Assembly: GCF_056712565.1 (NCBI RefSeq)
Contig: NZ_CM160072.1
Length of the DNA: 64,000 nt
Reading direction: 5' to 3' (one strand)
Shown: piece after piece, positions 15,001 to 18,000 of the stretch
Position numbering within the stretch: position 1 is the first letter of the stretch
Layout: each line of letters opens with the position of its first letter
Made by a program: the position numbers

Positions 15001-18000
15001 AATTTTTGCCTGCATTTGCCCCATGGATTCATACAGATGCACCGGGAGGTCTTTGACTGCGCCGCCGCTGGAAGGGCCAATAATATTTGGGCACCAGCGA
15101 TACTTAGCAAAACTTTCCGCCAGGTTGGCGGCCAGTAAAAACGAGGTATTCCCCCACAGATAAGACTCATGACTCTGGCTGACATCTTCATGGTAACGGA
15201 AGGTTTTGACAGGGTTTTCATCCGGTGAGTAAGGGTGGCGCAGCAGGAACCGGGGGGCGGTCAGGCCCAGGTAACGGGAATCTTCCGATTCACGCAGGGC
15301 GCGCCAGCGGGAGTAGGCCGGGCCTTCAAAGATGGCACCCGGTTCTTTGATCCCCGGTAACTCTGTCCATGAATCCAGACCGAAAAATTCGGATGATACT
15401 GACGACAGGAACGGGCTGTGCGCCATCGCGCTGACCTGGCTGATATATTTCAGCAGCTTCATATCCGGCGTGGTGTTCTTAAAGGCAAAGTTGCCGATTA
15501 CCGCCGCCACTGGCTCACCGCCAAATTGTCCGTAACCGCTTGAATATACATGCTTGTAATACGCAGACTGCGTGATTTCAGGTGCAAATTCGAAATCATC
15601 CAGCAGTTCTTCCTGAGTGACATTCAGGAAATGGACTTTGATGTTTTCCCGTGTATCCGCGCGTTCAACCAGCAGCTTCAGCGAGCGCAGCAGGGATTCC
15701 AGTTCCTGAAACTCCGGGGCATGAATAATGGCATCCATCTGCCTGCTGGTTCGGGCATCAATATCAGCAATCATGGCGTCAACGGCCAGGATATTGATAG
15801 GTTCAGCGCTACTGTCGCCCTGTAACATGGCGGCAATAAAGGCGCTCACGCCCTGGCGGGTGATATCGTAGCTTTCTGATTTAGGCTGGACGCGGGTTTG
15901 CGCCATGATTTCATCAAGCAGAGATGGGGGCGCGGCGGTTTGAGACGCGCTGACGGGAGCAATTTCTTCCTTTACTGACATACTGAATATCCTTCTGTGA
16001 AAATTATTTCTGAACGGCGATACCCAGTTCCTGGATCAGCTGCTCGCGGGTGTCTTCGTTTTCCAGTAGCGCCTGAAGTTGTGCGCGGAAGGCTGGAATA
16101 TTGCCTAGTGGAGACTTAAGTGCGACTAGGGCTTCACGCAATTCGAGCAGACGTTTTATTTCTGGTACCTGGCTGGCAATATGGTCAGGAGAAAGGTCAT
16201 CCATAGATTTGACTTTCAGGTTGACGTACATTTGCTCATTGGGAGCGTCACTGAGTTCAGCCGGAACAACAAACTCCCGTTCAATGTCAGCTTCTGAAAT
16301 GACTGCGTTGAGGTTATAGCGGTTGATAGCAATGGCAGTTCGCTCATCCAACGGCGTGTTATCTGGTTTCCCTTTCAGATTGCCGGTGATCAATAAATTC
16401 AGCGGCAATTCGATATCAGCAGCCACCCCATCAACTTTTGGTGTATACCGAACGCTGATTCTTTCTTTCGGCGCGACACTGCCGCCATTGTTGTTCATTT
16501 TGCTCATAAAAATGTTCCCGTTCAGGCCATGAGCACAGCATTTTCGTACTGCATACAAATACCGACAATACCGTTTCAGTGGCAGTTAGATAATGTAACC
16601 TTCCTTCTGTTGTGATCGGTATTCTACTCATGAAATAAAACATTAAAAGAACTATTTATATTTTTGAAAGAGATGTATCCTTCATTATTAATACATAAGA
16701 GTTAAATCAATTTGGTATTTATAGACTTAGTGAATATGATTTTACGGCTAATAAAGTTACATAATGCATTGATTTATATGTGTTTATTAAGTTGATTAAT
16801 AAGTTTTATGTATGGTTTTATAAATAAATTAATTAATTGCTAGAAATACATCATAAGAAATTCCTTTAAGGAATATCTTAATTGCGTGCCGGAACGATTG
16901 TGAAGTAAGTGTTGTAATGATTGATTTTTGAAGAAATTGTAGGTTTTTATGGGGGTAAGGATACGTTATGGATAATTCTACTGTTGATGTTGATATATTT
17001 TTAGCTTATGTAATCGTGTTCTGAAATTGACTAAAAATATATTTAAACACCATAAAAGAGTTTTTCGGTAGGTGCTAATTACGTGTGCCTGTAACTCGAA
17101 TAAAGAAAAGGGTGTGGTTCCTGATGTGAGCCGCATCACACTCTAACCTGTCGGGGATTAACGACGGGTTGTTCGTAAAACAGCAGTTGATAATTTCACA
17201 AGGAGTTCATAAATGCCAACCCCATGTTACATTTCAATTACAGGTCAGACCCAGGGGAACATCACTGCCGGTGCTTTCACCGCAGATTCTGTCGGCAATA
17301 TCTACGTGCAGGGACACGAAGATGAAATGCTGGTGCAGGAGTTTCTGCATAACGTTACTGTTCCAACCGATCCGCAGTCTGGTCAGCCTTCCGGGCAGCG
17401 TGCTCACAAACCGTTCATTTTCACCGTGGCGCTGAACAAAGCCGTTCCGCTGCTGTACAACGCGCTGGCCTCCGGTGAAATGCTGCCGAAAGTGGAGCTG
17501 CACTGGTGGCGTACCTCTGTTGAAGGCAAGCAGGAGCACTACTTCACCACACGTCTTACTGACGCGACGATTGTGGACATGAACCTGCATATGCCGCACT
17601 GCCAGGACCCTGCACAGCGTGAGTTTACGCAATTGCTCGCAGTATCACTGGCCTACCGTAAGGTTGAGTGGGAGCACATCAAATCCGGTACTTCTGGTGC
17701 CGATGACTGGCGTGCACCGCTGGAAGCATAAATCTGAGTCAACAACATCCTGCCTCCGTGCAGGATGTTGTTTTTGTACGTGTAAAAAATGAGTGTCAGT
17801 AAGGAGTTACGCTTTCATGAGGGAGATGGTGGATGCCGGAAACCCGGGCGGTAGCGTACCTGAAAATGTAAAGATGAGTGTAACGCTGCACTGGCACCCT
17901 TTGCTGCATGGTGGGAATCATTTGGTCCGTGAATGAATCAGGGAGGTCATTATGTCCTTAAAAGGTCTTCGCTTTACGCTGGAGGTTGACGGCCAGGAGC

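Follow-up and report, generated by a model that had tools for sequence, protein, structure and literature searches.

The window, a 64,000-nucleotide stretch of contig NZ_CM160072.1 (assembly GCF_056712565.1), carries a type VI secretion (T6SS) locus in which two gene clusters diverge from a long intergenic spacer (Table 1). The UTI89 RefSeq annotation, mapped onto the window, places tssB on the minus strand and hcp on the plus strand, as the original prediction had it, and gives the order of the structural cluster as tssB-C-E-F-G-tagH-J-K-L-clpV-vasI-tssA-tssM-vasL. Judged by its sequence, this is the APEC/ExPEC T6SS2 locus, with the tssB (vipA2) operon divergent from hcp2B-vgrG2-DUF2169-xmtU-xmtV. 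The ExPEC strains ZJ3920 and UTI89 are ~100% identical to the window, and a TssB search of genome contigs gave only three loci. T6SS-2 is the commonest T6SS in E. coli, and we know of no natural signal found so far that switches it on.

Table 1. Features of the tssB-hcp intergenic region and its flanking genes (positions in the window)
Feature	Position	Strand	Basis or remark
tssB (vipA2) CDS, structural operon gene 1	16004..16507	-	UTI89 RefSeq annotation mapped onto the window; ATG at 16507
Whole tssB-hcp intergenic control region	16508..17212		705 bp, 31.5% GC
Conserved tssB leader, putative 5' UTR of ~107 nt, with GGA-containing Shine-Dalgarno region GGGAAC	16508..16614	-	Putative extent, set by the predicted -10
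Single GATC of the spacer	16614..16617		Absent at the same position in Pseudocitrobacter and EHEC
AT-rich core, presumed H-NS binding platform	16621..17070		24.7% GC; lowest-GC 450 bp of the window
-10-like hexamer TAGAAT for tssB (TAAAAT in many EHEC-type variants)	16621..16626	-	Putative -10 function
Conserved block upstream of the tssB -10, AAAAGAACTATTTAT ... AAAGAG ... GTA	16645..16677		Invariant columns in a 5-lineage alignment and metagenome variants
AATTAATTAATT run	16827..16838		Within overlapping AT-only inverted repeats
27-nt palindrome TAAGAAATTCCTT-T-AAGGAATATCTTA, putative operator of a dimeric regulator	16854..16880		12/13 arm positions complementary
Perfect 12-nt inverted repeat ATATATTTTTAG / CTAAAAATATAT	16993..17042 (arms 16993-17004, 17031-17042)		26-nt spacer holds the CpxR-dependent segment
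Segment without which CpxR-P does not bind the hcp2B promoter fragment	17003..17026	+	Published EMSA (PMC6534853) and primer mapping
-35-like TTGACT (5/6)	17027..17032	+	Just 3' of the CpxR segment, inside fragment 17003-17237; TTG invariant in 5 lineages
Leader hairpin HP1, GGTGTGGTTC / GAGCCGCATC, 10 bp, 7-nt loop	17111..17137	+	Covariation, 8 lineages
Exact CRP core match TGTGA-N6-TCACA	17125..17140		Overlaps HP1 3' arm
Leader hairpin HP2, AACCTGTCG-GGGATTAA-CGACGGGTT, invariant GGA 17155-17157 in loop	17145..17170	+	Covariation and RNAalifold
hcp Shine-Dalgarno AAGGAG, second GGA	17200..17205	+	Invariant ACAAGGAGTT in all lineages
hcp (hcp2B type), gene 1 of the hcp-vgrG-DUF2169-PAAR/peptidase_C39-small ORF operon	17213..17731	+	UTI89 RefSeq annotation mapped onto the window

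Of 5426 complete E. coli genomes, 552 carry the spacer region, which also occurs in E. whittamii and Pseudocitrobacter. This distribution, together with the IS remnants found near the T6SS locus, is that of accessory, horizontally acquired DNA, as expected of an H-NS-silenced xenogeneic promoter. The length (690-705 bp) and GC content (0.29-0.33) of the spacer are held in 52 of 54 distinct variants, those of Pseudocitrobacter and E. whittamii included; the two exceptions measure 645 and 660 bp. A partial match in SCU-176 (17071-17212 plus hcp) was considered as an orphan hcp module marking the boundary of the promoter and was rejected, as it reflects an IS1 insertion with inversion.

The spacer is longer than the ~650 bp first proposed; the left edge had been set at 16559 because a TTG-extended ORF was followed, placing the tssB start at 16558 and not at the annotated ATG. 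That the spacer is non-coding and very AT-rich is borne out: its ORFs reach at most 53 aa, and its GC content, like that of the core within it, is far below the 48.6% of the whole window. The spacer might nevertheless hide a gene for a small protein or for a stand-alone sRNA, since ORFs of 24-53 aa do exist (for example 16978-17139 on the minus strand) and the conserved hairpins described below could in principle be part of an sRNA. However, those ORFs that do not overlap the hairpins are in the fast-evolving core, and indels between lineages break them; an Rfam scan of 15500-18500 (E≤1) returned nothing relevant, and the hairpins form one continuous stretch with the Shine-Dalgarno sequence and ATG of hcp, which are invariant. 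A terminator scan of the spacer gave matches no commoner than in shuffled sequences, and no hairpin with a T-run lies inside it. We consider a hidden gene highly improbable.

Comparison of alleles resolves the spacer into three zones, a core that appears to evolve near-neutrally and two conserved leaders that flank it. Between the two E. coli alleles, the core diverges by 10-14%, about as fast as third codon positions (7.9% for those in tssC, tssB and hcp), and its identity to EHEC is 23-60%; the leaders keep 97-100% identity between these alleles, and 57-90% when compared with distant lineages. The conserved elements on either side (the tssB -10 with its upstream block, and two hairpins in the hcp leader) can thus be told apart from freely drifting AT-rich filler.

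The composition of the core is that expected of an H-NS-silenced xenogeneic promoter, and published work on APEC points the same way. In APEC TW-XM, inactivation of hns raises expression of hcp2B-vgrG2-DUF2169-xmtU-xmtV and of the divergent vipA2 (tssB) cluster, and 50% duck serum up-regulates both the operon and the cluster (PMC5874247); the gene content of the TW-XM hcp2B operon is the same as that in the window. The homologous region of EHEC has been described as an H-NS-repressed bidirectional promoter (PMC13141884, PMC5363993), the genes that flank it are de-repressed on loss of hns (PMC5363993), and direct occupancy by H-NS is stated in PMC13141884, which cites Wan 2017 and Kim 2022. From its composition and from the EHEC homologue, the ExPEC allele is presumed to bind H-NS as well, although the Lang high-affinity nucleation motif TCGATAAATT, an optional feature of such promoters, has no match of at least 9/10 on either strand of the spacer. 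H-NS would polymerise on the ~450-bp core of ~25% GC and thereby silence the two divergent promoters in laboratory conditions. A comparable case is the SPI-6 T6SS of Salmonella, which Brunet et al. in 2015 reportedly found to be silenced by H-NS. Like other H-NS-silenced xenogeneic islands, it shares with the T6SS-2 region an AT-rich control region, an acquired island, silence in vitro and de-repression in hns mutants, but the two have no sequence homology and their counter-silencing factors may differ.

We read the spacer as the region that controls the E. coli T6SS-2 locus in both directions, in its ExPEC/APEC allele and with the three zones described, and assign this reading a probability of about 0.8. 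The proposal of a silenced, regulator-dependent divergent control region agrees with published experiments on the same allele, which concern H-NS and CpxR.

A second regulatory scheme is an epigenetic switch in which iron limitation and Dam methylation set expression; the original prediction named Fur and sought GATC sites. The model for such a switch is the EAEC sci-1 (T6SS-1) promoter, which Brunet et al. in 2011 are said to have found under Fur/Dam control, with Fur boxes overlapping GATC sites. There are indeed resemblances, since sci-1 also has an AT-rich promoter upstream of tssB and belongs to an E. coli T6SS that rich medium leaves switched off; Fur boxes share the AT-richness of the spacer, and a GATC lies near the predicted +1 of tssB. 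However, sci-1 belongs to another T6SS family, and neither strand of the spacer holds a Fur box of at least 14/19, so that Fur boxes over GATC sites are absent at the T6SS-2 locus. The spacer had been reported to have no GATC; it has the one, which is not conserved, and this near-absence is uninformative because only ~2 sites are expected from base composition. Moreover, neither fur deletion nor iron limitation up-regulated the hcp2B operon or the vipA2 cluster in APEC TW-XM, where clpV2 and hcp2B were unchanged (PMC5874247). With Fur without effect at T6SS2 and a single unconserved GATC, a role for Fur and a role for Dam both fall, and we regard the switch as close to refuted.

Scanning with regulator motifs, which had been suggested as a check, yields little for the spacer: none of the motifs for Fur, high-affinity H-NS, CpxR, sigma-54, RcsB, Fis, Lrp/LeuO or full-length CRP matches above chance. 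One IHF core (16762-16774, minus strand) and one weak PhoP-like repeat are present, neither of them significant.

The core itself contains two symmetrical elements. The near-palindrome singled out by the original prediction is real, but its sequence TTCCTTTAAGGAA lies at 16861-16873, one position from where it had been placed, and the actual palindrome is 27 nt long. Its level of symmetry is reached by 2 of 300 dinucleotide-preserving shuffles. The palindrome is kept in ExPEC-type alleles and in E. whittamii, is reduced to its right half (TTTAAGGAATATCT) in EHEC, and is absent in Pseudocitrobacter; a predicted minus-strand promoter overlaps it (-35 TTCACA at 16904, -10 TAAGAT at 16880-16875). 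The second element, a perfect 12-nt inverted repeat that had been missed, reaches a level found in 1 of 100 shuffles; it is kept in the ExPEC-type alleles of E. coli, imperfect in E. whittamii, and absent in EHEC and Pseudocitrobacter. We propose the palindrome and the inverted repeat as lineage-specific candidate protein sites in the silenced core. The AATTAATTAATT run is present as originally noted; in the alleles of Yu5 and E. whittamii it has lost 4 bp by deletion.

On the tssB side, the leader is 72-88% identical to EHEC and Pseudocitrobacter up to ~16577 and ~50-60% identical beyond, compared to the 23-60% of the core. The heptamer GTA(G/A)AAT, which contains the -10-like hexamer, is conserved in every lineage examined. 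The conserved block upstream of this hexamer lies in a poor -35 region and would therefore be a candidate activator site. Thus a conserved TA(G/A)AAT, a poor -35 and an upstream block would together imply an activator or a counter-silencer, and the tssB transcript would carry the conserved leader of ~107 nt. The RNAalifold fold of this leader has one-sided changes only and no double compensatory changes, and we make no claim of RNA structure for it.

On the hcp side, a promoter-active fragment has been defined in APEC DE719 by the primers of Yi et al. (PMC6534853). These primers match the window exactly (17003-17025, 17027-17048 and 17216-17237), which places the fragment at 17003-17237 (235 bp) and turns the published CpxR and promoter fragments into concrete parts of the control region. 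In the same strain, the gel shift by CpxR-P is lost once segment 17003-17026 is removed, and deletion of cpxR lowers hcp2B, vgrG and xmtU (PMC6534853). The best match to the CpxR consensus, GTAAT-N8-GAAAT at 17010-17027, lies inside and just past the required segment and agrees at only 7 of 10 positions; no GTAAA-N(4-8)-GTAAA direct repeat of at least 9/10 was found in the spacer at any spacing. Furthermore, E. whittamii and the other ExPEC-type alleles have GTGAC or GTGGC in place of the GTAAT half-site. Because the match is weak and the half-site is changed in other alleles, control by CpxR may be allele-specific or the site may be misassigned. The hcp promoter lies inside the fragment and would be activated by phosphorylated CpxR through the required segment, which adjoins the -35-like TTGACT; the -10 paired with TTGACT at ~17048-17056 and the start site are predictions. 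A scan for consensus sigma-70 promoters found 3, with 3.9 expected, and is no better than chance in such AT-rich DNA; a sigma-70 PWM scan gave many weak candidates and fixed no start site.

Transcription from sigma-54 promoters driven by a VasH-like enhancer-binding protein would be a different arrangement. The gene order of T6SS-2 mirrors that of the Vibrio cholerae vas cluster, whose promoters are of this sigma-54/VasH-driven kind. However, the T6SS-2 cluster has no vasH between tssH and vasI, and the spacer has no -24/-12 match (TGGCAC-N5-TTGCW) of at least 10/11, and we give sigma-54 control next to no credence.

The hcp transcript would carry a structured leader, 100 nt or longer, in which two hairpins are conserved. 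In HP1, standard pairs are found in 78 of 80 cells across eight lineages, and six of its ten positions vary yet stay paired, including changes from G-C to A-T; the hairpin is also predicted in single-sequence folds of five lineages. HP2 has two-sided changes in four pairs, with 90% of cells paired compared to 32-52% when the partners are slid, and it is independently predicted by RNAalifold. The covariation is drawn from 8-9 sequences representing ~5 independent lineages, and the fold z-score of the leader is only -1.66. We considered HP2 as an intrinsic attenuator and rejected this, as neither EHEC nor L028 keeps the T-run that follows its stem. A profile of the leader found no second copy in the 64-kb window with nhmmer.

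The 3' arm of HP1 coincides with a sequence that we at first favoured as a regulatory site, an exact CRP core through which cAMP-CRP might directly activate or repress the hcp promoter. The T6SS of Vibrio cholerae is under CRP control, and the site is the sole exact core match in 64 kb; the Yu5 allele retains its GTGA/TCAC bases, and E. whittamii and Pseudocitrobacter each depart from it at one position. A CRP site was also predicted by BProm in the S. sonnei homologue, but there a change in glucose availability had no effect on reporter activity (PMC10924462). Its flanks misfit the 22-bp consensus AAATGTGA-N6-TCACATTT (12/16, with a cut-off of 13/16), a deletion removes its right half-site from EHEC-type alleles, and it would lie inside the transcribed leader. 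The six bases between the half-sites, although not read by CRP, are conserved as well as the half-sites themselves. The conserved bases are exactly those of the HP1 3' arm, paired in all eight lineages. Direct control by CRP is therefore unlikely, and the CRP core is probably a by-product of HP1.

The GGA in the HP2 loop and the GGA of the Shine-Dalgarno sequence start 47 nt apart; the leader thus has at least two GGA motifs, in a loop and in the Shine-Dalgarno sequence, with a separation within the 10-63 nt range of CsrA leaders. This is the classic layout for two-site repression by CsrA. Likewise, the leaders of the P. aeruginosa H1-H3 T6SS, reportedly RsmA/CsrA-controlled according to Allsopp et al. 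in 2017, have a GGA in a hairpin loop and another in the Shine-Dalgarno sequence of a T6SS mRNA, although they have no sequence similarity to the hcp-leader hairpin. The GGA in the HP2 loop suggests binding by CsrA, consistent with the reported repression of EHEC hcp3 and tssC by CsrA (Wang 2017) and the ANGGA motifs 8 bases from the ATG of tssB and hcp3 that are cited in PMC13141884.

HP1, HP2 and the GGA-containing Shine-Dalgarno sequence may form a post-transcriptional switch common to all enterobacterial T6SS-2 loci. If so, CsrA or another RNA-binding factor would gate synthesis of Hcp independently of H-NS, and the switch could explain why promoter swaps and hns deletions activate T6SS-2 incompletely. 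The fuller proposal, in which the hairpins act as the switch and the 27-nt palindrome is in addition the operator of an ExPEC regulator, is a tentative one that we think somewhat doubtful.

The control region is real but ordinary, because published work on strains with this sequence has already linked it to repression by H-NS and activation by CpxR; as the outcome of a genome scan it is an expected, already published feature. The first observation is partly confirmed, holding in outline with some details wrong. The vipA2-hcp2B region of APEC/ExPEC T6SS2 (TW-XM, Ma et al. 2018; DE719, Yi et al. 2019) is the same locus with essentially the same sequence: its operon content and all three published primers match the window, and there is no real difference. 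That work does not describe elements on the tssB side, palindromes, hairpins in the leader or zones of differing conservation. What comparison of sequences adds here is the three-zone structure, the conserved -10-like hexamer of tssB, the two covarying hairpins of the hcp leader, and the reading of the CRP core.

Another close relative is 't6sP' of EHEC O157:H7 T6SS-2, between tssB (z0264 in the numbering of PMC13141884) and hcp3, at an orthologous position of ~264 kb (Wan 2016/2017; Kim 2022; Vazquez-Lopez 2026). Both t6sP, for which H-NS repression and several transcription start sites are reported, and its S. sonnei copy have the same divergent tssB/hcp layout, with hcp 85% identical and a spacer of 696 bp (705 bp here) and ~33% GC. 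The tssB leader, TA(G/A)AAT, HP1, HP2 with its GGA loop, and the Shine-Dalgarno sequence are all shared with the window. In contrast, the t6sP core goes undetected by blastn from the window's region, and neither the left arm of the palindrome nor the 12-nt inverted repeat of the ExPEC allele is conserved in t6sP; the same holds for its CpxR-associated segment and its CRP core. In EHEC, the tssB leader also carries 12 inserted nucleotides, and the linker between HP1 and HP2 is shorter.

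The control region of the ExPEC T6SS-2 locus has been characterised before, and the tssB-hcp spacer of the window is that region. Over the 901 bases around it, identity is 100% to E. coli ZJ3920 and 99.9% to UTI89, and we transferred the UTI89 RefSeq annotation to the window (offset 1601). The gene order of the cluster is that of the Vibrio cholerae vas cluster. In the mapped annotation vasH, a sigma-54 activator, is absent between tssH and vasI (window 8500-11300), and the spacer holds no -24/-12 element; control by sigma-54 and VasH was rejected on these grounds. In gene content the locus matches the APEC/ExPEC "T6SS2" operon hcp2B-vgrG2-DUF2169-xmtU-xmtV, divergent from vipA2 (Ma et al. 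2018, PMC5874247).

Features of the tssB-hcp control region and its flanking operons, in window coordinates
Feature	Position	Strand	Remarks
tssB	16004-16507	-	mapped UTI89 annotation; ATG at 16507
Operon tssB-tssC-tssE-tssF-tssG-tagH-tssJ-tssK-tssL(icmH)-tssH-vasI-tssA-tssM-vasL		-	mapped UTI89 annotation
Non-coding spacer	16508-17212		705 bp; 31.5% GC vs 48.6% in window
GATC	16614-16617		only one in spacer
-10-like TAGAAT	16626-16621	-	within invariant GTA(G/A)AAT
Conserved block AAAAGAACTATTTAT...AAAGAG	16645-16672		in poor tssB -35 region
AATTAATTAATT	16827-16838		
27-nt palindrome TAAGAAATTCCTT-T-AAGGAATATCTTA	16854-16880		12 of 13 arm positions complementary
TTCCTTTAAGGAA	16861-16873		centre of 27-nt palindrome
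Perfect 12-nt inverted repeat	16993-17004 / 17031-17042		26 nt between arms
-35-like TTGACT (hcp)	17027-17032	+	TTG invariant across lineages
Hairpin HP1	17111-17120 / 17128-17137	+	
CRP core TGTGA-N6-TCACA	17125-17140		sole exact match in window
Hairpin HP2	17145-17153 / 17162-17170	+	
HP2 loop GGA	17155-17157		in all lineages
hcp SD AAGGAG	17200-17205		second GGA, 47 nt 3' of loop GGA
hcp	17213-17731	+	first gene of operon
Operon hcp, vgrG, DUF2169 protein, Tox-PAAR-like + Peptidase_C39 protein, 96-aa ORF		+	

The original prediction of a silenced, regulator-dependent divergent promoter region is correct and already published. Inactivation of hns raises clpV2, hcp2A and hcp2B, none of which is up-regulated by iron limitation or fur deletion, and both divergent arms are induced by 50% duck serum, though not equally (Ma et al. 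2018, PMC5874247). Deletion of cpxR lowers hcp2B, vgrG and xmtU, with a less than twofold change in vipA, clpV and hcp2A; overproduced NlpE acts through CpxR to induce the hcp2B operon, and a Phcp2B-lacZ fusion shows activity (Yi et al. 2019, PMC6534853). In EHEC, the orthologous region is described as a bidirectional promoter that H-NS represses and that has several transcription start sites; inducible promoters have been put in its place (PMC13141884, PMC5363993), as was done in S. sonnei (PMC10924462). Our modest additions are a three-zone architecture, conserved putative promoter elements of tssB, the full length of the palindromes, and a pair of covarying hairpins in the leader, with a GGA loop.

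The proposed AT-rich non-coding spacer stands, but its left edge does not: 16559 followed a TTG-extended ORF rather than the annotated tssB ATG. The core (16621-17070) has 24.7% GC, less than any other 450 bp of the 64 kb. Stretches of 28-32% GC also lie at 24221-24670, 49300-57450 and 61841-62910, one at ISAs1 transposase remnants and several in the distal third of the window. The near-palindrome first seen is the centre of a larger one, whose quality was matched in only 2 of 300 dinucleotide-preserving shuffles; the perfect inverted repeat, equalled in 1 of 100, is likewise non-random. Contrary to the prediction, GATC is present; one copy against about two expected from base composition allows no conclusion from its scarcity. 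A Fur or Dam switch was rejected: the spacer holds no Fur box, its one GATC is not conserved, and the literature (PMC5874247) is negative. A hidden small gene or sRNA was also discarded, as the spacer ORFs (at most 53 aa) lack conservation, no terminator is present and the hairpins adjoin the hcp start; an Rfam search around the spacer returned nothing relevant.

The spacer is present in 552 of 5426 complete E. coli genomes, in two main allele classes (at least 99% and about 91.5% identity). The EHEC-type locus occupies the same chromosomal site in about 2240 further genomes, with hcp 85% identical; blastn with the window spacer did not detect theirs. We compared the spacers of Yu5 (the second allele), EHEC SS52, Escherichia whittamii and a Pseudocitrobacter MAG, and a metagenome scan with the invariant SD/ATG string added 113 stretches. 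All but two (645 and 660 bp) of the 54 distinct spacers are 690-705 bp, at 0.29-0.33 GC. Length is thus held across the ExPEC-type, EHEC-type, E. whittamii and Pseudocitrobacter loci despite a nearly unalignable core, which suggests that length or spacing is under constraint. Both ends are conserved (97-100% identity between the two E. coli alleles, 57-90% to Pseudocitrobacter and EHEC). The core (16608-17007) diverges by 10-14% between these alleles, about as much as third codon positions do in tssC, tssB and hcp (7.9% pooled, 10.5% in tssC), and can scarcely be aligned with EHEC (23-60% identity). Composition and length are therefore kept and sequence is not, as would fit a binding platform for a protein that reads composition, such as H-NS.

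On the tssB side, every lineage compared has GTA(G/A)AAT, the ~107 nt leading to the ATG are conserved, and the -35 region is poor. This pattern suggests an activator-dependent promoter with a predicted start near 16614.

On the hcp side, CpxR-P shifts the promoter fragment and does not shift one lacking the putative site (PMC6534853). Three primers of that study match the window exactly (17003-17025, 17027-17048, 17216-17237), placing the promoter-active fragment at 17003-17237 and the segment needed for CpxR-P binding at 17003-17026, directly 5' of TTGACT. The best CpxR-like match is weak (GTAAT-N8-GAAAT, 7/10), and a motif scan of the spacer found nothing at 9/10. Since the GTAAT half-site reads GTGAC or GTGGC in other alleles, CpxR control may be specific to the window allele.

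The last ~100 nt upstream of hcp have normal GC content and two hairpins, for which covariation comes from about five independent lineages. HP1 has standard pairs in 78 of 80 cells over eight lineages, and six of its ten positions vary yet stay paired, including one G-C to A-T change. HP2, predicted independently by RNAalifold, has both sides changed in four pairs; 90% of its cells are paired, versus 32-52% with the 3' partners slid by 1-3 columns, and only 2-5 of 500 shuffles equalled what was observed for HP2. Both appear in single-sequence folds of five lineages. The exact CRP core might be read as a working CRP site, but this is improbable: its flanks depart from the full consensus, its "unread" spacer bases are conserved to the same degree as the half-sites, EHEC has lost its right half by deletion, and the bases conserved in it form the 3' arm of HP1. 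We therefore regard it as a probable by-product of the HP1 stem. CsrA targets usually have two GGA sites, and the HP2 loop and SD share this geometry, making the leader a candidate CsrA target; EHEC hcp3 and tssC are reported as CsrA-repressed (Wang 2017, as cited in PMC13141884).

In SCU-176, an IS1 inserted at 17070/17071 and a second IS1 downstream flank an inverted segment, so that hcp is left with only 142 bp of upstream DNA, parted from tssB: a natural disruption of the control region. A 285-bp Moellerella wisconsensis contig encoding the first 30 residues of the window TssB at 100% identity most likely reflects contamination of that assembly with E. coli. EHEC SS52 has an additional 74-aa hypothetical ORF between tssB and tssC (1045-1269 of its locus), which the window lacks (gap of 22 bp). 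The 220-bp hcp-vgrG spacer (17732-17951) is the positional counterpart of the EHEC 'h3R' element, for which a terminator and an internal promoter are reported; simple scans of the window allele found no terminator-like or promoter-like site there. Finally, at the vgrG 3' end (19100-19712), identity to Yu5, whose vgrG is annotated as a truncated pseudogene, drops from ~97% to 49-59% past ~19400, which looks like an effector-module swap.
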